Shown: positions 2,218 through 44,398 of the stretch, piece by piece
Position numbering within the stretch: the first letter of the stretch is position 1
Layout: every line of letters starts with the position of its first letter
Assembly (NCBI RefSeq): GCF_000422585.1
Contig: NZ_KE383880.1
Coordinates: 1 to 64,000 of the forward strand
Direction of reading: 5' to 3'
Length of the DNA stretch: 64,000 nt
Origin: Hugenholtzia roseola DSM 9546
GTDB taxonomy: Bacteria > Bacteroidota > Bacteroidia > Cytophagales > Bernardetiaceae
Position numbers and translations under genes: made by a program
Notes under the pieces: generated by a model
Databases searched by the model: none
What the model was told of the DNA's origin: nothing
The model's input: only the letters and a program-made list of their open reading frames with translations

Positions 2218-3432
2218 CTATACGTACCCAAAGCGTACCCCAAGACCGCCAAAAGTGCGCCCACAGGAGCAAGAGCAGGGTGAAAAGCCGAGGCAACCAC
2301 AGGCGCGGAAGCCGCCCCCCCCAATATTCGCCTGACTGCCCACCGCCACAAAAAAGAACGGAGCGCGTATGAGATATGCCGTAAGCAAAAGAACAAGAAT
2401 ATGCACCAACATCCAAATAAGCCCCAAACTAATTACCCCCCAATTTTTGGCTACCTCGCCCAAATCCATCTTCATGCCGATACTTGCTACTAAAATATAA
2501 ATAAAAATACTACCAACTTTTGAAGCACCTGCCCCTTCGAGCTTGCGAATAGGTGAAAAGGAATAAAGGACACCGATTGTTGTTGCCAAAACGACAAGCC
2601 AAAAGAAACCATCGGCAAACGTTGTGAGTCGCCACTGTGAAAGGGTCTCGATGTGAGTCTGCATATAGGGAGCAATCAGGTCTGCGCCCCAATGCGAAAG
2701 AGCCGTTGCACCAAAGGCTGCCGCCAAAATCTGGAAGTAGTCGGTAGTAGTCGGATTTTTCGCCACCTGCTTTTGATAATTCGTCAGGTCGGCTTTCAAA
2801 GACTCAATGGCACTGTTATCAGCTTTTAGCCAACGGTCTATTTTGTCGCTAATGCTTGCCCCATACAAGACCACTCCCATCCAGATATTCGCCACAAAGA
2901 CATCGACGACTATCATAGCGGCAAAAAGATTATCGCTCGCCTGATAAATTTCCTTCATAGCCGCCTGATTTGCGCCCCCTCCAATCCAACTACCTGCAAT
3001 CGTCGCCATGCCACGCCAAAGTTCCGTACCACCCGCCTGCTCTACCACTTCGGGAAAAAAAGCGTGCATTACCCAAAGCGAAATAGGTCCTCCTATCATC
3101 ACACTGACCGTTCCTGCCAAAAACATCACAATAGCACGCCAGCCCAAATTGAGAACGCCTTTCAAATCGATGCCAATGCAAAGCAGCACCAAAGCCGCAG
3201 GAAGCAGGTAGCGCGAACTCACAAAATAGAGTTTAGAACTTTCGCCTGAAATGACATTAAAATAGGTGAGCAAGGCAGGCAAGAAATAACAAAGTACCAA
3301 GGCAGGCACAAACTTGTAAAACTTCTGAAAGATAGGATGTTGGCTGCGTTCTGTGGTGAAAATGAAGGCTAAAATTGTTATCAAAATTCCAAGAACGATA
3401 GCGTCGTTGGTAAAATAAGGTTGATTTTCCAT
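2218..3432 (-). CDS. DUF819-family integral membrane protein
   Basis: 404 aa with multiple predicted TM segments and an N-terminus typical of DUF819 proteins. The Gly/Cys-rich C-terminal tail is unusual and could hide a frameshift. Confidence 0.55.
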   Translation of the reverse strand: MENQPYFTNDAIVLGILITILAFIFTTERSQHPIFQKFYKFVPALVLCYFLPALLTYFNVISGESSKLYFVSSRYLLPAALVLLCIGIDLKGVLNLGWRAIVMFLAGTVSVMIGGPISLWVMHAFFPEVVEQAGGTELWRGMATIAGSWIGGGANQAAMKEIYQASDNLFAAMIVVDVFVANIWMGVVLYGASISDKIDRWLKADNSAIESLKADLTNYQKQVAKNPTTTDYFQILAAAFGATALSHWGADLIAPYMQTHIETLSQWRLTTFADGFFWLVVLATTIGVLYSFSPIRKLEGAGASKVGSIFIYILVASIGMKMDLGEVAKNWGVISLGLIWMLVHILVLLLTAYLIRAPFFFVAVGSQANIGGGGFRACGCLGFSPCSCSCGRTFGGLGVRFGYV

Positions 3433-5536: not shown

Positions 5537-7240
5537 TTATTCTAATCTATTTTTTAAATCTAAATCAAACCTTTCAGCATAGTTTTGCGCAATTTCATAA
5601 CCAGCATCTGCATGGCGGATAACGCCCATAGCAGGGTCGTTGTGCAACACTCTTTTAAGGCGTTTTTTGGCTTCCTTTGTGCCATCTGCCAAAATGACCA
5701 TGCCTGCATGAATCGAGTAACCCATACCGACTCCGCCGCCATGATGCAAAGAAACCCAAGTTGCGCCGCCTGCGGTATTGATAAGGGCATTTAGCACTGC
5801 CCAGTCTGCAATCGCATCAGAGCCGTCCTTCATGGCTTCGGTTTCGCGGTTAGGTGAAGCTACCGAGCCTGTATCGAGGTGGTCGCGCCCAATGACAATC
5901 GGGGCTTTCACAATTCCCTTTTTCACGAGCTTGTTCAAAGCCAAAGCCGCCTTCTGACGCTCCCCCATGCGCAGCCAACAGATACGCGCAGGAAGCCCCT
6001 GAAAGGCAATGCGCTCCTGTGCCATTTTTATCCAACGGTGCAAAGACTCATCTTCGGGGAAAAGTTCTAATAGCACTTTATCACATTCGTAGATATCCTG
6101 TGGGTCGCCTGAAAGGGCTGCAAAGCGGAAAGGACCCTTGCCCTCACAAAAGAGGGGGCGAATGTAGGCAGGCACAAAGCCGGGGAAAGCAAAGGCATTG
6201 TCGATGTGGCGTTGGTCGTGCGCTTGTCCGCGTAGGTTGTTGCCATAGTCGAAGACCACAGCTCCCCTTTTTTGCAATTCTACCATCTGCAAGACGTGAC
6301 GCGCCATTGTATCCAAAGAGAGTTTGACATATTGCTGCGGATTTTCATTTCGCAAAACTGCTGCCTGCTCTACACTGATATTTTCGGGAAAATAGCCATT
6401 CAGTGGGTCGTGAGCGGAAGTCTGGTCGGTAAGCACATCGGGGGTGAGATTTCTATCTAAAAGACGCTGTAGCAAATCCACAATATTGCAAACTACCCCA
6501 ATAGAAAGGGCTTCGCCGTTGGCTTTTGCAGCTAAGGCAGCATCAATGGCAGCATCTATGTCGTGTATTTTTTGGTCTAAATAGCGCGTTTCAAGGCGTT
6601 TATCGATGCGCCACTCTTCCATTTCGGCTGCCAAACATACGCCGCCATTCATCGTAACGGCTAAGGGTTGCGCTCCGCCCATACCTCCTAAACCTGCCGT
6701 AACGCTTAGTGTATTTTTAAGGCTGCCGCCAAAATGCTGCTGCGCAACGGCAGCAAAGGTTTCATACGTGCCTTGCACAATTCCCTGCGAACCAATATAA
6801 ATCCACGAGCCTGCCGTCATCTGACCATACATAATCAGCCCTTTTTTATCTAATTCGTGAAAAGTGTCCCAATTTGCCCATCTTGGCACGAGCATAGAAT
6901 TAGAAATCAAGACACGCGGCGCGTTTTTATGAGTAGGCAAAATCGCAACAGGCTTGCCCGACTGTATCAATAAAGTTTCGTCATCTTCTAAATCTTTGAG
7001 TGCCTTGACTATCAAATCAAAAGCCTCCCAGTTGCGTGCCGCCTTTCCAATGCCGCCATAAACGATAAGGTCTTCGGGTTTTTCGGCAACTTCGGGGTCT
7101 AAGTTATTGTAAAGCATGCGCAGGGCAGCCTCCTGCTGCCAACCTTTGGTATTGAGCAGATTGCCTTTTGGGGTCGCACCCATTTTAGAGATGTCGGTGA
7201 TAGTATTCGAATCTAATTTTGAATCTAAGGTAGTGTCCAT
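5537..7240 (-). CDS. hutU: urocanate hydratase
   Basis: Strong family-level similarity over the full length ([13 protein letters not shown]-binding region). The track ORF extends to 7378, but the Met at 7240 gives the canonical ~567-aa length. Confidence 0.9.
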
Positions 7241-9300: not shown

Positions 9301-9388
9301 ATGACTTTTTCCAAAGTTTTTTTCCAAAAATTAGGTACAAATGTAGGGACAAGGCACTGCCTTGTCCCTACAATACATTTGCGAAAAG

Positions 9389-24636: not shown

Positions 24637-25668
24637 ATGACCACTATCACCGAACTAAAACGTCCGAATTGGTATCTTGCTATCGGAATCCCCTTGCTTA
24701 TCGCCATCAGTAGCTTTTGTATCACCCAAACAGAGGCTTTTAGCAACAACGCCGAACTACTTTCCCAAGCCATCTTGGTTGATATGCTCCTGCTTGCGCC
24801 TTTTCTCTACTACCTTGTGATAAGAAAAAGTACGGCAGGCAAGCATACCTTGTTAAGGCTTTGGTTGCTTAGTTTGTTGGTCTTAGAATTGATTTTAGGC
24901 AATCAGGCAGGAGAAAACCTAACGGCTTGGCAATATGTGAAAACTTTTGTCTATCCGCTACTCGAAATCGGCTTGCTGCTTTGGTTAGGATATAGTTTTT
25001 ATGTGGCAAGGAAAGAGCTAAAAACGCAACAAGTAGATTTTCCAAATCTGACGCGCCAGATGTTGGGCAAAATTATGGGTCAGAGTAAAGCCACTAATTT
25101 TGTCGCTGCCGAAATAATTTGCCTCTACTACGTTTTTGCGTGGGAAAAAAAGGCAAAACCAAATTATCAAACCTCTTTTAGCACCTACCAAGAAAGTGGC
25201 GGTATCGGACTTTTGTATGGCTTACTCTTTATTTTGCTGGTGGAAACGCTTGTCCTGCACCTGCTTTTGGCACAGTGGAATCCAACAGTGGCGTGGGTTG
25301 CGACAGGGCTAAGTCTTTATGCTTGCTTGCAAATTTTTGCACACACAAGGGCTATCAAGATGCGCCCGATTGTTTTGGATACCAATAACCTACAAATTTA
25401 CAACGGACTTGCTGCGGAAGCCATTTTTAGTTATGATAAAATAGAAAAAGTAGAACTTTCAAATGAAACTCCTTCTGACAAAAAAGCAATAAAAATGGTG
25501 CTGCTGCCTGATTTAGAAACCCATAATTGCGCTATTTTTCTCAAAGAGGAAGTAGCGGTAAGCAAGTTTTTTGGCATCAAACAGAAAACAAACCTGCTAC
25601 TTTTTTATACCGACCGCCCCCAAGATTTTCTTCATCAGCTTGCACTTAGGAAAGCACAGATTTTGTAA
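24637..25668 (+). CDS. hypothetical polytopic membrane protein
   Basis: 343 aa with multiple hydrophobic segments. No family assigned. Confidence 0.45.
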   Translation: MTTITELKRPNWYLAIGIPLLIAISSFCITQTEAFSNNAELLSQAILVDMLLLAPFLYYLVIRKSTAGKHTLLRLWLLSLLVLELILGNQAGENLTAWQYVKTFVYPLLEIGLLLWLGYSFYVARKELKTQQVDFPNLTRQMLGKIMGQSKATNFVAAEIICLYYVFAWEKKAKPNYQTSFSTYQESGGIGLLYGLLFILLVETLVLHLLLAQWNPTVAWVATGLSLYACLQIFAHTRAIKMRPIVLDTNNLQIYNGLAAEAIFSYDKIEKVELSNETPSDKKAIKMVLLPDLETHNCAIFLKEEVAVSKFFGIKQKTNLLLFYTDRPQDFLHQLALRKAQIL

Positions 25669-25673
25669 AGTGG

Positions 25674-25774
25674 CGTTGTTACAACGGTCAGAATGTCAAA
25701 AAACGGGGTTTTGTGCTTCGCGCAAACCTCCTGAACCCCCACCCTGCCCCAGTGATGTTAAGTTCTGTGAAAAG
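25674..25774. repeat. left arm of a ~100-bp imperfect inverted repeat (partner at 27797..27893)
   Basis: Its reverse complement matches the right arm at about 85% identity, including the CACCCTGCCCCAG core and a GTTACAACGGTCAGA end. Confidence 0.6.
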
Positions 25775-25796
25775 TCTTGTTTTATCAAATTTGACA

Positions 25797-25890
25797 CGAA
25801 ATAAAATTTGGACTGAACCCTATTTTTGGGTCTGAAAATTCTTTTTTATTTCAATCTCACTACGGACAAGGCAATGCCTTGTCCCCACAA
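25797..25890. repeat. partial MITE family B copy (starts with TIR CGAAATAAAATTTGG, ends at a REP palindrome)
   Basis: The sequence shares the 15-bp TIR and the TTTTTTATTTCAATC...CGGACAAGGCAATGCCTTGTCCC segment with 27600..27763. Confidence 0.55.
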
Positions 25891-26121
25891 CGGTAGCGCG
25901 AAGCTCCAGATTCGCCTTTGTACTGTGTTTTTTGGCATCTTCCCGTTTTGGGGCTTTTTAGAGAAGTGCCTAAAAGTTGAAATCGTAAATATTCGCCCCT
26001 TTATCGACAAATGCAGTGCCTTCATCTTTATGCCCTGATTTTGAGCAAAGAATTTGAAAAGAAGGGTACAACACTATCCTATCAATTCATTCCTTCTTTC
26101 AAACCTCAACTTTGCAGGACA

Positions 26122-27465
26122 ATGAACGCGACACAAAAAATCCAAGAAATAGAAAATTACTTAGGCAGTCTATTTTTCAATCCTTATCGCCGCAAAAGCT
26201 ATGCTTACGCTCACGACTACCAAGAACTTTTGGCAGCCATCGAGCTACACCTTGCACAGGGCAAGCGACACGCCAAAGCGCGTAATTGGCAGGCTGCTAT
26301 TCACGAATACGACACCATCTTGCTTTGGCAACGCAATCATACAGAGGCACTTTTTTTGTTAGCCGATGCCTATAAAAACCGTTGGCTCGACTACGGAAAC
26401 AAGCGCGACAAAGAGAAATCGCTTGCTTATGCACAACACTGTTTGCAGGTAGCACCCCACCATGCAGAAGCCAATGAGCTTGTCCATCAGATTTATACCA
26501 CCAGTCAGCTCGAAAACATTTGGGAAAGCAAGCATACCTACCAAGTTGCGTTTGCCACACTTATTGCTACGGCGATGCTTGCCTGCGGCGTTTGGGCGTA
26601 TCATTATTTCGGCTTCCAACTTTATCAAACAGAAAGCGCACCCCTGACTTTTTCTGCCTTAGACTTGATTCAGCAAGAGCCTGCCGCCCCCAACAACCAA
26701 AACACGTGGCTGCCCACCGAAGCCACACAAGCGGCACAGCGCACAATGCAGCAAGTTCCCGTAGAGTTTTTGTATCAGCATCAAAATCAGCACTTACAAC
26801 TGCACCTAAGCGTAGAACAATCTTTGTATCGCGCCTATCAGGAAGCCTATTCCTACAATCTTTTGGCAGATGTGGCGGTGCAGGGCGCAAATGTTGCCCT
26901 TCTCAAACTCAAAGTGGATTTAGTTGATGCCGCAGGTACGATTTTGCGCACCGATTGGATAGACTTAGTGCAGCCACACGAGCAATTAGCACACGCTGGC
27001 GAGGTCTTGCCCTTGCATTATTTGGAATACGAAGAAGGGCAAAATTTAGACTTGGCAAAGATTCAGATTACAGTTGCCGAAATACAATGGATAGAGCAAA
27101 ACGAAACGGCTTTCATACAAGAGAAAGAATTGCTTTGGCAGACAGCACCACTTGAAGGAACAGAAATTGTTATCAAAGAGCGCAAAAATGAGCTACTCGA
27201 TGCTCAAGGCGATGGCACTTATCACCATATCGAGTGGCAAATCGGCAACAAAGGCGAAAATCCTGTTCAGTCCTTGCAAGTAGAAATTGCTTGGTACAAT
27301 CAGAAGGGGCAAATTGTAGAAGCGCGTACTACCTACCTGACGCACTCCTCACAGCCGAGTTTGAAAAGCAAGCAAAAGCGTAGTGAAAATCGTACCTACC
27401 GCTTGGCAAACATCAAAGCCGAAGACATCGCAACTTACACCCTAACGGTGATAGATGCCCATTAA
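26122..27465 (+). CDS. hypothetical protein with an N-terminal TPR-like helical region and one central TM helix (AFATLIATAMLACGVWAYHYF)
   Basis: Intact ORF that lies wholly inside the inverted-repeat-bounded module. Track ORF from 26011. Confidence 0.45.
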   Translation: MNATQKIQEIENYLGSLFFNPYRRKSYAYAHDYQELLAAIELHLAQGKRHAKARNWQAAIHEYDTILLWQRNHTEALFLLADAYKNRWLDYGNKRDKEKSLAYAQHCLQVAPHHAEANELVHQIYTTSQLENIWESKHTYQVAFATLIATAMLACGVWAYHYFGFQLYQTESAPLTFSALDLIQQEPAAPNNQNTWLPTEATQAAQRTMQQVPVEFLYQHQNQHLQLHLSVEQSLYRAYQEAYSYNLLADVAVQGANVALLKLKVDLVDAAGTILRTDWIDLVQPHEQLAHAGEVLPLHYLEYEEGQNLDLAKIQITVAEIQWIEQNETAFIQEKELLWQTAPLEGTEIVIKERKNELLDAQGDGTYHHIEWQIGNKGENPVQSLQVEIAWYNQKGQIVEARTTYLTHSSQPSLKSKQKRSENRTYRLANIKAEDIATYTLTVIDAH

Positions 27466-27599
27466 AAGCGTCCTTTTTGGTTTGTTGTCTTGTGATATAC
27501 CGTTTTTTTAGATAGTTTTTAGGATAGGATAACAGAAACGCTACCCTCTTTGAGGGTAGTGTTTCTCTTTTTTAAGCCCTTTTCAGAAAACTACAAAAA

Positions 27600-27763
27600 C
27601 GAAATAAAATTTGGTTTTGACACCCTCGCTTTGGGGGAGGGCAGGGTGGGGTTCATTCCTTTTTTATTTCAATCGTACTGCGGACAAGGCAATGCCTTGT
27701 TCTATGCCCCAAACCCTAAGGGTCTTGAAGACCCTTAGGGTTTAAGTCCAAATTTTATTTCGT
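27600..27763. mobile_element. MITE family B, complete 164-bp copy with perfect 15-bp TIRs (CGAAATAAAATTTGG / CCAAATTTTATTTCG) and an internal perfect 14-bp-stem hairpin (AAACCCTAAGGGTC ttgaa GACCCTTAGGGTTT)
   Basis: TIRs and hairpin read directly. Partial relatives occur at 2001, 25797 and 37265-37480. Confidence 0.65.
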
Positions 27764-27796
27764 TCCTAATTTTACAAGACAAGTCCTTTCACAGAA

Positions 27797-27893
27797 CTTA
27801 ACATTACTGGGGCAGGGTGGGGGTTCAGTGGATTTGCGCAAAGCACAAAACCCTGCTTTTTAAACTTCTGACCGTTACAACGCTTGTTTGAAT
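27797..27893. repeat. right arm of the ~100-bp inverted repeat (partner at 25674..25774)
   Basis: See the left arm. Confidence 0.6.
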
Positions 27894-27927: not shown

Positions 27928-29616
27928 CTACTGAAAAACCTTTGTGAAGTCAAATTTTTGTCCATCAAAAAGCCCTTTGTCGCTCATTTTCAGATAGGGA
28001 ATAACCAAAAGTGCCATAAAAGAAAGGGTCATGAAGGGTGCACGTAAAGGCGGGTGACAAAGATTTTTAGCATACGTATCGATTTGTGTGTATGCCTGCG
28101 CTACCGATAAGCCATCTTTATCCGACATCAAACCTGCAATAGGCAAAGGCAATACCTGCGGCTTTTCAAAAGGTGAAACGGCTGCAATGCCCCCCTGCGT
28201 TTCTATCAGCAAATTGATAACCTCTGCCAAACTTTCGTCGCTTGTCCCGACGGCGATAAGATTGTGCGAATCGTGTGCGACAGTGGAAGCGATTGCCCCT
28301 TTTTTCAGACCAAAATTCTTGACATAGCCTATCGCAATCGGCGCATCTTCTACATAACGGTTCAAGACCACTATTTTGAGAATGTCCTCAAAAAGTATTG
28401 CCTCGAAGTTATCGCCATTTTTCAAGCCCGTCATTTGTCTTATTTTTTTCATTTTATAGACCAAACTGCGCGTAATCAGCTCGCCATCAAGGACTTCAAT
28501 TACCTGCAAGCGGCGCACCCATTTCGGAATAGGAAAGGCAAAATCTTCTGCTTTTCTTTTTCGGGCTTTAAAAGAATTAAGTTGGGAAACAACCTCCTTT
28601 TCCAGCGGTTTGGCATTTAGAAAGGTCTCTTTTTGGGCTTTGTCATAGACCAAATTGCCTTCGATATAAGTCTGCAAGACTTCAAAGTTTTCCAAATCCT
28701 CGACGATAATAAAATCCGCCGCCTTTCCTACCTCCAAGCCGCCTACAGATAAGCCATAATGCGCAATCGGATTCAGACAAGCTACCTGCAAGACCTTAAA
28801 CAAATCGAGTCCCTTTTTTACGGCACGGCTCACTAATTGATTGATATGTCCAAGGGCTAAATCGTCGGGGTGTTTATCGTCCGAACAGAACATCATATTG
28901 GGATAGTGCGCGTCTAAAAGTCCGATAAGGGCTTCAAAATTTTTAGCCGCGCTTCCTTCGCGTATCAAGATTTTCATACCCAAAGCCAACTTTTCGGCTG
29001 CCTCCTCCTCTGTAAAGGCTTCGTGGTCGGTATAAATGCCTGCCTCTATGTATTTTTTCAAATCCGCGCCGCGCAAGGCAGGGGCATGCCCATCTACGGG
29101 TTTTCCCAAACGGTGTGCCTGCTCTATTTTCGCCATCACCTCTGGTTGGCGGGCAATGACGGCAGGGAAATTCATCATTTCAGCCAAATACAAAACTTCG
29201 GGCAGGGCTAATAATTGGGCTACTTCTTCTACTCCCAAAGTCGCGCCTGCGGTTTCGAAGGGCGTGGCAGGCACACAACTGGGCGCACCGAAGTAGAATT
29301 TTAAAGGCGTTTGTTTGGCGTTTTCTATCATAAAAAGCACCCCTTTGATGCCCAAGACGTTGGCTATCTCGTGTGGGTCGGAAACGGTCGCGACAGTGCC
29401 TTGTGCCAAAGCCAAGGGCGCAAAACTGCTCGGCACTAACATCGAACTTTCTATATGCACGTGTGCATCTATAAAGCCAGAGAGGGCAAAATGTGCCACT
29501 CGCGCCTCTTTTTCAAGTGGCTTCAAAGCGGCAATCTTTCCGTTTTCTATCAGAATTTCAACGGGGTAGATGCGCTTTTCCGCAATATTTACTAAGTTTG
29601 TGCGTATTGTAGTCAT
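27928..29616 (-). CDS. ade: adenine deaminase
   Basis: Amidohydrolase motifs (FIDAHVHIESS, DPHEIAN) and adenine-deaminase-family length of 562 aa. Confidence 0.8.
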   Translation of the reverse strand: MTTIRTNLVNIAEKRIYPVEILIENGKIAALKPLEKEARVAHFALSGFIDAHVHIESSMLVPSSFAPLALAQGTVATVSDPHEIANVLGIKGVLFMIENAKQTPLKFYFGAPSCVPATPFETAGATLGVEEVAQLLALPEVLYLAEMMNFPAVIARQPEVMAKIEQAHRLGKPVDGHAPALRGADLKKYIEAGIYTDHEAFTEEEAAEKLALGMKILIREGSAAKNFEALIGLLDAHYPNMMFCSDDKHPDDLALGHINQLVSRAVKKGLDLFKVLQVACLNPIAHYGLSVGGLEVGKAADFIIVEDLENFEVLQTYIEGNLVYDKAQKETFLNAKPLEKEVVSQLNSFKARKRKAEDFAFPIPKWVRRLQVIEVLDGELITRSLVYKMKKIRQMTGLKNGDNFEAILFEDILKIVVLNRYVEDAPIAIGYVKNFGLKKGAIASTVAHDSHNLIAVGTSDESLAEVINLLIETQGGIAAVSPFEKPQVLPLPIAGLMSDKDGLSVAQAYTQIDTYAKNLCHPPLRAPFMTLSFMALLVIPYLKMSDKGLFDGQKFDFTKVFQ

Positions 29617-29952: not shown

Positions 29953-30102
29953 GATGAAAAAAATACGTTCCCACGCCTCTAAATGGGTGCTTTTTCTCCT
30001 ATTCCTTTGGTTTGGCAGCCTTGTGAGCAGTTGTATTCACTCGCCCAAGCAGCCTTGGACACCCAAATACAAGAGCTATAAACAATCTAAAAAGAAAAAA
30101 TA
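29953..30102 (+). CDS. mini-lipoprotein paralogue 2 (49 aa; below the size cut-off of the ORF track)
   Basis: MKKIRSHASKWVLFLLFLWFGSLVSSCIHSPKQPWTPKYK..., a signal peptide plus Cys with a Lys-rich tail. It shares the SCIH(A/S)P(R/K)QxWTPK motif with paralogue 1. Confidence 0.55.
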
Positions 30103-30132
30103 GACCTCTCTCTTTTTCACCAAGTTTATTTC

Positions 30133-30309
30133 ATGATGCGATTGCTGCCCCAATTTTTCACGTTCCGATTGGCACGCCTACTGTGTTTGGTAGGACTCTT
30201 GCTGCTCCCTTTGTTTCTTGTATCCTGTCAGAGCCACAAGCCCAAATACGGAAAAGGCAAGACCATGAAGCGTGGAAAGGCGATTCCTTGCCCGATGAAA
30301 GACTGTTAG
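30133..30309 (+). CDS. mini-lipoprotein paralogue 3 (58 aa)
   Basis: MMRLLPQFFTFRLARLLCLVGLLLLPLFLVSCQSHKPKYGKGK..., a signal peptide plus Cys with a basic tail. Confidence 0.5.
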   Translation: MMRLLPQFFTFRLARLLCLVGLLLLPLFLVSCQSHKPKYGKGKTMKRGKAIPCPMKDC

Positions 30310-30414
30310 GGTTTGAAGTGGTTTAGAAAACAAGCAAATAACTAACAGTTATTTGAAAACTGTTAGTTATGATAACTCATTTTTTCGCCGTTGTCTTTGC
30401 ACATAGGCAAGATA

Positions 30415-31140
30415 CTATCTACATTTTTGTATATAAACCACCTTTATTTCTTTATTTTCTACACTATCCATATAAATTTCGTTTTCATTCGTTTCGTCAG
30501 TAGGAACATTGAAAAAATTATCCCTATTAAAACTTACATAAGTTGTTTTTTTGTTTTCGCTTGTTTTATTTTTTTGCACAATTTTAGGCACTACCGTATC
30601 AAATAGGGTTATGATTGTATCTAAATCTTGAACAGTATACTTATAACCGTACTCTAACACAGGAAAAGCACCCAAAGAAATGTGCCTGAAACACTCCTCT
30701 TTATTTTCAGGGTTTTCAAAGAAAAAATGTATTTCTGGAACGTACCCTTTTTTGTAAAAATCAATTCCCCTTGAAGAATTATGATAAATCACATGAATAT
30801 AAAAGTCATTTTTCTTGTAAATATTTGTTACTTTTAAAGAGTCTATTTTTTTACCCATTTTTATTTCATTTTTACTTATTTTGGGATATCGAGGAGGAAT
30901 AACTGTATGAAGACTTCGCATATCTATTACTGTATTTCTATTGTTTGTTATTTGAAAATTAGAGTTTTCATTGTGTACGCTTTTTATTTCCCAATGCGGA
31001 GGCATTTTAAAAGAAAAGTAAGGATGCTCGATATGACACCAGTTGTCTGTATTGATGTTTTGAATGTTTAGATTTTGTTCTTCTGCTGAATTGCAGGCAG
31101 TTAGGAGTATTACGATAAATAATACAATATTTTTTTTCAT
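30415..31140 (-). CDS. hypothetical lipoprotein in a strongly AT-rich islet
   Basis: N-terminal MKKNIVLFIVILLTAC lipobox. Its composition is clearly lower in GC than the flanks. Confidence 0.55.
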   Translation of the reverse strand: MKKNIVLFIVILLTACNSAEEQNLNIQNINTDNWCHIEHPYFSFKMPPHWEIKSVHNENSNFQITNNRNTVIDMRSLHTVIPPRYPKISKNEIKMGKKIDSLKVTNIYKKNDFYIHVIYHNSSRGIDFYKKGYVPEIHFFFENPENKEECFRHISLGAFPVLEYGYKYTVQDLDTIITLFDTVVPKIVQKNKTSENKKTTYVSFNRDNFFNVPTDETNENEIYMDSVENKEIKVVYIQKCR

Positions 31141-37227: not shown

Positions 37228-37258
37228 AAGACACCTGCTTTTTAGTAGGTGTTTTTTT
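37228..37258 (+). terminator. intrinsic terminator after tRNA-Cys (ACACCT gctttttagt AGGTGT followed by T8)
   Basis: Read directly. Confidence 0.6.
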
Positions 37259-37615
37259 TGTGAAAAATAAAAAAAGTAGGCGAAAGTCCCGTTTTGAGTC
37301 TGAAAACCCTTTTTATTTCAATTTCACTACATTGTAGCGTGAAGCTCCAGCTTCGCGCGTTTGATTGCAGCAAAGTAATATTAAGTTCTGTGGAAAATCT
37401 TACATTTTAAATTTTAAACAAAATAAGATTTGGCAAAAGTCCCGTTTTGAGTCAAGGCAATACCTTGTCCCTACATTTTCCTTTTTTTTAGCATTTAACT
37501 TAACATCATTGGAATTTGGGTGGGTTGCGTTTCAGACTTTTGCAACAAAGCCAAACGCAACCCCTTTGATACCACAAAACTTATTTAGAAAGGCTATTTT
37601 ATCGTACCTAAAAAA

Positions 37616-44282: not shown

Positions 44283-44398
44283 ATTAAACTTTTTTTGTAG
44301 GGACAAGGCATTGTCTTGTCCCTATCTTTACTTCTAATTTTTAGAACTTAGCACCAATAAGTTTTAAGTCGTATAATTTTAGGCGACAATTCGCCACG

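Follow-up and report, generated by a model that had tools for sequence, protein, structure and literature searches.

Two opposed copies of a dispersed repeat family probably flank a resident TPR-protein gene in Hugenholtzia roseola

The window analysed here comprises 64,000 nt (64 kb) of Hugenholtzia roseola DSM 9546 (contig NZ_KE383880.1, positions 1 to 64,000), in which an inverted repeat surrounds a single gene. To the left of the repeat lies a forward-strand gene for a 343-aa multi-pass membrane protein (24637–25668, stop at 25668), which had no Pfam match and no close orthologue in the related species described below; its best non-self match, from Flavobacterium, was 50% identical. To the right lies ade (27928–29616, minus strand, stop at 27928), which was confirmed as an adenine deaminase gene (TIGR01178, 3.9e-187) and is convergent with the enclosed gene, as a first-pass annotation of the sequence had indicated.

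Read from its first ATG, the ORF of the enclosed gene spans 26011–27465 and encodes 484 aa, in agreement with the NCBI annotation. In the related species, in-frame stops are found upstream and the common ATG aligns with position 26122. Hence, 447 aa is the probable product and, based on this alignment, the true CDS is likely 26122–27465 (plus strand). The first-pass annotation had placed a 484-aa gene at these same coordinates, which are retained here, whereas the length is not, as 484 aa would begin at 26011. Its description of a TPR-like protein with a single TM segment was borne out: PDB profile matches to consensus TPR proteins (5e-9) back TPRs at residues ~35–120, and the predicted structure of the 447-aa protein (pLDDT 60) places, with low confidence, one TM segment inside a long helix that is followed by two beta-rich C-terminal domains. 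The GC content of the gene was like that of its neighbours, with no compositional anomaly, and only one copy was present in the protein database. Its native upstream region (25985–26121) and native intrinsic terminator (27534–27575, a 15-bp stem with a T-run), both on the plus strand, are kept in the related species, and conservation of the upstream region was stronger than that of the coding sequence.

The inverted repeat around this gene, first noted in the annotation, is real. A repeat search recovered gap-free arms of 143 nt at 25678–25820 and 27739–27881, 85% complementary and separated by 1918 nt, and this pair was also the top inverted repeat of the whole window. Arms of ~100 bp at 85% had been proposed; the identity was reproduced, while the arms are longer than that and the right end lies at 27883 rather than 27893, the outer ends of the repeat being 25673 and 27883. 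In a gapped alignment the arms agreed at 125 of 148 positions (84.5%), the longest uninterrupted match being 23 nt, and weaker collinearity ran on to ~25892 and ~27682, giving ~200 collinear nt in all. An identity of only 84.5% indicates that the arms are old and decaying. The two shared core sequences quoted in the annotation occurred at the arms and nowhere else in the 64 kb, with 0.05 occurrences expected. Unitigs (Logan, SRR896243) broke at 25704, 25915 and 27651.

The left arm lies on the plus strand and begins with an outer module, 'A-outer' (GCGTTGTTACAACGG...GAACCCCCACCCTGCCC), delimited by repeat search and alignment at 25673–25749. It is followed by a 17-nt terminal-repeat core (CAGTGATGTTAAGTTCT, 25750–25766), an inner, promoter-like module (TTG...N18...AAAATTTG, 25767–25811) directed at the 447-aa gene, and a continuation (25812–25892) made up of a variable hairpin body, a T-rich tract (CTTTTTTATTTCAAT) and a palindrome (GGACAAGGCAATGCCTTGTCC). 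A second repeated palindrome (GCGAAGCTCCAGATTCGC) is located at 25898–25915 on the same strand, with further copies at 37339–37356 and in the related species (L023 10239–10256). The right arm lies on the minus strand and consists of the outer module (27810–27883), from which 3 nt present in the left copy are deleted, the core (CAGTAATGTTAAGTTCT, 27793–27809) and an interior (27701–27792) that contains the inner promoter-like module (27748–27792) and a perfect 16-bp hairpin (27711–27743) and adjoins a shared palindrome (27682–27700). The two cores are correctly inverted and differ at one position. Each arm has one core only and no distal end of its own, both thus displaying a left-half architecture, which fits two elements and not one element with an insert.

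Downstream of the native terminator, a partial repeat unit of the 1999–2102 type (27598–27700, plus strand, 93% identical) carries an inner-module end, a G-rich hairpin body, a T-rich tract and the palindrome, without a terminal-repeat core. The motif AAAATTTGG was located at 25811, at 27748 (minus strand) and at 27614. The region 27600–27763 had been annotated as a complete family-B MITE with perfect terminal inverted repeats, accompanied by a partial copy at 25797–25890. The repeat search did find a perfect 17-nt inverted repeat (27598–27614 / 27748–27764), the perfect hairpin is present, and a partial direct copy occurs at 25796–25890, but the term 'complete' did not hold. A better reading of the stretch 27598–27764 is a pair of convergent partial units that belong to one family and share one palindrome, and the real terminal repeat of the family is CAGTGATGTTAAGTTCT, which lies inside the arms at 25750–25766 and 27793–27809.

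The family is assembled from a 75-nt outer module, the 17-nt core, the promoter-like module, a variable hairpin, the T-rich tract and the palindrome. In the window, the inner module was further found at 1956–2016 and 37374–37433, and together with body and palindrome it recurred at 1956–2112 and 37374–37478. The palindrome (GTAGGGACAAGGCAnTGCCTTGTCCCTAC) was present seven times in 64 kb, each time just 3' of a gene or tRNA and four times in convergent spacers, and was joined with other modules in variable combinations, as in a mosaic. Complete copies, defined by inverted core pairs 139–246 bp apart, numbered five: one in the window (37373–37511) and four in the related species (L002 1479–1706; L023 5850–6095, 10197–10428 and 10439–10664). 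In all, the window contains 4–5 copies and 41 kb of related-species sequence at least 6, and another 15 had been called as ORFs elsewhere. Small mis-called ORFs that are in fact family copies numbered at least 15 (0 of 15 in the window); P0017 and P0019 are named H. roseola, P0012 comes from a contig other than that of the window, and P0012, P0016, P0020 and P0023 include the outer module in translation. ORFs in the complete copies are artefacts, and the arm-to-arm substitutions are mostly non-synonymous. A coding remnant was likewise rejected for the arms: despite an open frame and an in-frame indel, the substitutions mostly change the amino acid.

Target-site duplications of at least 3–4 nt were absent from all copies, the sole exception being a tandem-duplication artefact in L023; old MITEs are known to lose such duplications by decay (PMC10969869). 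No RAYT (Y1 transposase) gene was found in the 64-kb window. Searches of Rfam gave nothing relevant at the gathering threshold or at E<=1, only a chance match to a plastid 3'UTR (E 0.17). A degenerate inner-module pattern, satisfied by all five known copies of that module, returned only chance matches without homology in unrelated taxa from genome and metagenome contigs, two collections that evidently do not contain H. roseola or its relatives. The family has two properties of MITEs, a non-coding unit of <500 bp and multiple dispersed, mostly intergenic copies. It is a dispersed, mosaic, MITE-like family that is common to both species and was previously undescribed.

The related species (~80% identity) is a single species, represented by four independent assemblies (L002–L005) together with L006. 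A 448-aa orthologue (80% aa identity) with the same upstream region and the same terminator was present in L002–L005 and in L006, with L002 9860–11464 corresponding to window positions 25980–27573. In L002, L003 and L006 it converges with ade, while L004 and L005 stop short of ade. The outer module and the terminal-repeat core were absent from both spacers beside the orthologue in these assemblies. The 447-aa gene, accompanied by a promoter region and a terminator of its own, still stands at its ancestral site beside ade. For the left arm, no clean empty site is available, because the one related species available lacks a close 343-aa orthologue; this arm lies where a 22.4-kb segment splitting an ancestral spacer has its right end, and the repeats are located at a synteny breakpoint between the species.

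We consider it likely that the locus consists of two old, independently placed and opposed repeat copies around a resident gene, and that the 2.2-kb 'module' is not a unit. The appearance of a long inverted repeat would then result from two family copies lying in opposite directions, both non-coding spacers beside the resident gene having been colonised separately by family members. On this reading, the locus is not a mobile gene-carrying element. Transposition in trans, or recombination between repeats, may have brought the copies to their sites, a mode of spread that we infer, as no target-site duplication or autonomous partner was found for any copy; the palindromes may act mainly as 3'-end hairpins or terminators. 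The first-pass annotation had offered two opposed MITE insertions enclosing a resident gene as one of its two readings, and this is essentially what the evidence shows. It had also named what would speak against a mobilised gene, namely a syntenic gene without the inverted repeat in all relatives, with the arms present elsewhere as intergenic repeats. In the one related species available, the gene is indeed syntenic and lacks the repeat, and the arms do recur elsewhere as ordinary intergenic repeats.

Within the window, the long outer module was found at the two arms only; the copies in L023 and among the ORF-called copies show that it, too, is dispersed. Both arms belong to the rarer long-outer-module subfamily, which makes pure coincidence somewhat less comfortable as an account of two separate copies. 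The idea that the outer module is a universal component of the terminal repeat was considered and rejected, as the flanks of L002 1479–1706 and L023 5850–6095 are unrelated beyond the 17-nt core. Its origin as the ancestral 3' flank of ade was also rejected, local alignment to the flank in the related species scoring within the range of shuffles. There is a slight possibility that the family inserts beside the conserved 75-nt outer module, using it as a specific docking site.

Among the alternatives to two independently placed copies, we regard it as unlikely that the arms are exapted regulatory cassettes that persist through a role for the neighbouring genes. They could serve the 343-aa gene and ade as hairpin terminators, contain an inward-facing promoter that yields short RNAs, or give rise to an antisense transcript that enters the 447-aa gene from its 3' end. 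The position of all seven window palindromes just 3' of genes or tRNAs, with four in convergent spacers, is consistent with such roles, as is the folding of the interior parts, which was far better than that of shuffled sequences (z -3.4 to -6.3); the outer module, however, folded no better than shuffles (z about -0.1 to -0.3) and gave no structure signal. The inner module resembles the -33/-7 promoter of Bacteroidota and is putatively promoter-like, although its -7 box is imperfect; a sigma-70 promoter scan is uninformative for this phylum. Correia, BrickBuilt and SPRITE elements are known examples of MITEs with internal promoters and terminators (PMC10969869, PMC4596501). Against exaptation, the Rfam search gave no match, the 447-aa gene has its own conserved terminator, and ade apparently has a hairpin with a T-run between its stop and the arm (a feature read from the sequence and missed by the terminator scan). 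Moreover, the related species manages without arms at both sites.

A nascent composite, in which opposed ends were placed in situ and a MITE-bounded unit of 2.06 kb became movable by some transposase, appears quite improbable. The geometry itself is suitable: two copies bracket the cargo with usable ends outward, at 25750–25766 (+) and 27793–27809 (-), the cores are correctly inverted with one position different, and neither arm has a competing inner end. It was also observed, counter to the two-copy reading, that the cores at 25750+ and 27809- face each other as they would in a single element or a composite. With facing cores and no second end in either arm, geometry alone would permit mobilisation. 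MITE pairs around cargo are furthermore documented in Acinetobacter (PMC10969869). The cargo, however, is neither absent from the orthologous site nor present in multiple contexts: the gene is at its ancestral site in the related species and single-copy in the protein database. Short direct repeats at the outer boundaries of the inverted repeat, which had been suggested as a check, were not found, there being none of at least 4 nt at the 25673/27883 or 25750/27809 boundaries with +/-4 nt allowed. Arms at 84.5% identity are old and decaying, no activity of the family has been demonstrated anywhere, and no transposase or recombinase domain was detected in the ORFs scanned across 64 kb (nearly all those of >=120 aa), in agreement with the first-pass annotation. 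That annotation's other reading, a composite element that had mobilised a passenger gene, finds no support, given the gene standing arm-free beside ade in the related species, its single copy, the lack of target-site duplications and arms only ~85% alike. Were the opposed single-ended copies still recognised by some transposase, the segment between the CAGTGATGTTAAGTTCT cores might represent a newborn bacterial 'Pack-MITE', for which we see slightly less room again.

Of similarly low probability to the 'Pack-MITE' is a local inverted duplication, in which a process such as template switching or recombination would have generated one arm from the other. The restriction of the long outer module to the two arms within the window, their distance of 2 kb and their collinearity over ~200 nt would agree with such an event. 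Comparison with other copies argues against it. Over outer module and core, the left arm matched the right arm at 81 of 94 positions and matched a copy in L023, which lies in the other species at an unrelated locus, equally well (81/94; both 86%); that copy (L023 10119–10213, 3' of an ArsA-like gene) aligned to window 25672–25766 at 86% (E 1e-25). For the inner module, the left arm was 85.5% identical to the right arm and 87.1% identical to L002-2786. P0012 was 84% identical in translation to the left arm and 76% to the right arm, and P0012, P0016 and P0018 all resembled the left arm more closely than the right arm does. The variable hairpin bodies also differ between the arms. By these measures, the arms do not appear to be sister copies, as their mutual similarity is no greater than that to copies elsewhere.

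An invertible segment, in which the arms would recombine and turn the gene around as a phase-variation switch, is suggested by the ~145-nt inverted repeat around a discrete gene but is highly improbable, as promoter region and terminator both lie inside and inversion would alter nothing obvious, the longest exact identity is 23 nt at 84.5% overall, and no site-specific recombinase was found in the window.

The repeat family, two opposed copies of which probably form the arms, shares features with several known systems. Like the Correia elements of Neisseria and the BrickBuilt elements of Porphyromonas gingivalis (Bacteroidota), its members are small, non-coding, multi-copy and strictly intergenic, with terminal inverted repeats in the complete copies (139–246 bp), and have stable hairpins, promoter-like and terminator-like inner parts and many partial copies (PMC10969869, PMC4596501). 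In contrast to both, it has no target-site duplication, no known cognate transposase and interiors that are swapped modularly between copies, and there is no sequence relationship; the 23-nt minisatellite on which BrickBuilt is built is absent from the Hugenholtzia family. A 3'-end palindrome combined with modules in variable order and orientation is also typical of the BIMEs of E. coli (REP plus other motifs) and of pneumococcal BOX, RUP and SPRITE elements, the clusters of which are likewise nested, abutting and gathered in convergent-gene spacers (PMC10969869). These differ in sequence and phylum, and the Hugenholtzia family has a defined 17-nt terminal-repeat core. As in the MITE-flanked class 1 integrons of Acinetobacter, two inverted non-autonomous copies bracket a gene-bearing segment (PMC10969869). 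There, the MITEs are identical, the structure occurs in different contexts and species and the cargo is adaptive (PMC10969869), whereas the arms here are truncated and 84.5% alike, and the cargo is single-copy, at its ancestral site and without target-site duplication.

With no sign of gene mobilisation, the locus carries little weight as a mobile element, and its only departure from the ordinary is that it documents a repeat family not described before. It serves as a caution that a long inverted repeat around a gene can be just two opposed copies of a common intergenic repeat. Repeats of this family also yield spurious small ORFs in annotation and fragment short-read assemblies. The value of the finding is descriptive, in that it defines a new mosaic MITE/REP-like family of Hugenholtzia (Bernardetiaceae), common to two species.

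The inverted repeat of about 85% complementarity described in the first-pass annotation was real. A repeat search of the window returned two arms of 143 nt (25678-25820 and 27739-27881), without gaps and 85% complementary, which is larger than the ~100 bp originally given. A gapped alignment gave 125/148 identical positions and no exact match longer than 23 nt; beyond the arms, collinearity is weaker and reaches about 25892 and 27682. The left arm begins 5-6 nt past the stop of the 343-aa membrane-protein gene, matching the earlier 6 bp, but the right arm ends 44 nt, not 35 bp, short of the stop (27928) of ade, a clear TIGR01178 adenine deaminase. The cores quoted earlier were indeed found at the two arms only within the 64 kb. 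The Logan unitigs of SRR896243 are interrupted at 25704, 25915 and 27651, which is consistent with repeat k-mers common to other loci and proves nothing.

One gene lies between the arms. The encoded protein matches a hypothetical protein of H. roseola at NCBI with 100% identity, and the first-ATG ORF comprises 484 aa, as in the NCBI annotation and as first reported. The related species has in-frame stops 5' of an ATG common to both species, and the coding sequence is therefore likely 26122-27465 (447 aa), the 37-residue N-terminal extension probably not being translated. At 26011-26121, where those stops fall in the related species, sequence conservation exceeds that of the coding sequence, as would be seen in a promoter or operator region. 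The 447-aa protein contains a TPR region (PDB profile matches, 5e-9) and a weak FxLYD match; its predicted structure, of low confidence, has one transmembrane helix and beta-rich C-terminal domains.

Based on alignment with other copies, each arm is built from modules in mosaic fashion: a 75-nt outer module (25673-25749 and 27810-27883), the 17-nt core CAGTGATGTTAAGTTCT (25750-25766 and 27793-27809), an inner module that looks like a Bacteroidota -33/-7 promoter and has AAATAAAATTTGG at its 3' end, a variable hairpin body, a T-rich tract (CTTTTTTATTTCAAT) and, last, a palindrome (GGACAAGGCAATGCCTTGTCC). The outer module gave no fold signal relative to shuffles (z about -0.1 to -0.3), and the arm interior, owing to its palindromes, folded much better than shuffled sequence. 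An Rfam search of the repeat returned nothing relevant. The region 27598-27764, first called a complete MITE, does carry a perfect 17-nt inverted repeat but more plausibly consists of two convergent partial units with one palindrome in common; the forward unit is 93% identical to 1999-2102, and the second is the right-arm interior on the minus strand.

The core was scanned on both strands of the window and of related-species contigs. Correctly inverted pairs, 139-246 bp in spacing, were present at five sites: 37373-37511 in the window, 1479-1706 on contig L002, and 5850-6095, 10197-10428 and 10439-10664 on contig L023. Each of these is a complete MITE-like element with an interchangeable interior. 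The sequence outside the core is variable (long outer module, short C-rich version or unrelated DNA), and the core, not the outer module, is therefore the common terminus of the family. No target-site duplication was found at any copy examined. The cores of the two arms point towards each other across 2,060 bp, and an own distal end was found for neither arm. Both arms have left-half architecture and are therefore two elements, not one element with an insert. The window element at 37373-37511 lies in a region (37252-37575) directly 3' of tRNA-Cys, is complete, TIR-bounded and 139 bp long, has the short outer-module version outside its right end, and is preceded by another partial unit and a GCGAAGCTCCAGCTTCGC palindrome.

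The repeat family is dispersed. Inner module, body and palindrome recur in the window at 1956-2112 and 37374-37478, and a pattern search placed the palindrome GTAGGGACAAGGCAnTGCCTTGTCCCTAC at seven loci, plus one diverged copy (2084-2104, 9347-9367, 13395-13415, 19052-19084, 25864-25884, 27682-27702, 37450-37470 and 44301-44321). These copies always follow the 3' end of a gene or tRNA directly, in many cases where two genes converge, and look like a REP-like bidirectional terminator hairpin; the constant position at gene ends suggests a role as terminator or 3' hairpin. A separate 202-nt direct repeat with internal 53-nt inverted repeats occurs at 2-203, 773-974 and 1809-2010 (93% and 69% identity to the first), interleaved with two small minus-strand ORFs (250-711 and 1042-1722) without Pfam match.

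Copies outside the window were sought by translating the arms, whose frame is open by chance, against protein databases containing mis-called ORFs. This returned 15 small "proteins" made of repeat modules, none of them in the window (0/15); 2/15 carried the name H. roseola and came from contigs of 187,010 and 288,068 bp, and the NCBI protein P0012 lies on a 360,203-bp contig. The outer module was present in P0012, P0016, P0020 and P0023. P0026, a 150-aa mis-called ORF, holds four tandem copies of a ERNRIWTQPYLNATVF piece, pointing to tandem amplification of the inner/body module at its source. Through P0027, a member of the P0023 cluster, the related-species locus L023 was reached, where outer module and core (10119-10213) match window 25672-25766 at 86% (E 1e-25) downstream of an ArsA-like gene, in an unrelated genomic context. 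The whole spacer there, between ArsA-like and DUF3857 genes (10119-10725), is packed with repeats: on the left is a long outer module, followed by a tandem pair of TIR-bounded elements whose 3' halves show 97% identity across 118 nt and, on the right, by a short outer module in inverted orientation.

The first-pass annotation stated that its reading would be refuted by a gene syntenic and free of the inverted repeat in all relatives, and the one related species read has such a locus. The comparison set 64 kb of H. roseola against about 60 kb from this species, represented by JGI metagenome and Logan contigs (L002-L006) and about 80% identical in protein and 78-84% in DNA. Its orthologue of the 447-aa gene shares upstream region and terminator with the H. 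roseola gene (L002 9860-11464, equivalent to window 25980-27573) and is convergent with ade in L002, L003 and L006, and outer module and core are absent from both spacers beside it. The 447-aa gene is resident. Hence, of the two origins first put forward, opposed MITE insertions around a resident gene are favored: the arms are probably two independent, old, truncated copies of a mosaic MITE/REP-like repeat in opposite orientation. Dispersed copies would have settled separately in the spacers on both sides of the gene, having spread through a transposase acting in trans or through recombination.

That the arms are exapted promoter, terminator or sRNA cassettes is compatible with this explanation and rather unlikely. 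A composite formed in situ around the gene, which could be mobilized, would fit the facing cores and missing distal ends but is improbable: neither candidate boundary pair of the 2.2-kb module has a target-site duplication (the short direct repeats once envisaged at its outer ends), the gene is single-copy in a 5.8-billion-protein database, no transposase or recombinase was found in the 64-kb window among the ORFs scanned, nearly all of those with at least 120 aa, as first stated for the module, and no compositional anomaly of the module was found. With all mobility tests negative and the gene resident in the related species, the proposed mobilization of a passenger gene is not supported. Local inverted duplication, as a source of two such similar arms, is quite improbable. 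The left arm is as close to the L023 copy as to the right arm over outer module and core (81/94 each), its inner module is closer to L002-2786 (87.1%) than to the right arm (85.5%), and P0012, P0016 and P0018 are nearer to it than the right arm is; the arms are thus not sister copies. An invertible switch, in which the arms flip the enclosed segment, is very improbable, as promoter region and terminator both lie inside that segment and exact identity between arms reaches only 23 nt.

No description of repeats in Hugenholtzia was found in the literature searched. The family resembles promoter/terminator-bearing prokaryotic MITEs (Correia and BrickBuilt) and mosaic repeat clusters such as BIMEs and BOX/RUP/SPRITE (PMC10969869, PMC4596501), and the two-arm arrangement recalls, by its geometry alone, the MITE-flanked integrons of Acinetobacter. 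The opposed-arm arrangement itself is ordinary.

Upstream of the orthologue lies a divergent DUF819 gene, and their 345-bp spacer is contiguous in four independent related-species assemblies. In H. roseola, where the DUF819 orthologue is at 2218-3432, this spacer is split by 22.4 kb of ordinary chromosomal genes (3550-25979: GmrSD, urocanase, PspC, PadR, tRNA-Ala, an MVP-shoulder/vault-like protein, 3-HAO, tRNA-Val, kynureninase, lspA, a Reg_prop/SpoIIE protein and the 343-aa membrane protein). The vault-like protein (817 aa, 9389-11842, minus strand) contains Major Vault Protein shoulder and Vault_3 repeat domains, a family unusual in a bacterium. Elsewhere, a low-GC patch (30100-31140, 29-36%) with a 241-aa minus-strand ORF (30415-31140) without Pfam match may be foreign DNA. 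No close orthologue of the 343-aa gene was found in the related species, and the left arm therefore has no clean empty site. The left arm is located at the right-hand end of the 22.4-kb block, and the repeats therefore mark a synteny breakpoint. In the related species, the spacer between the gene and ade is occupied by another module of this repeat system (L002 11538-11628); in both lineages, this spacer therefore acts as a sink for repeats of this kind.
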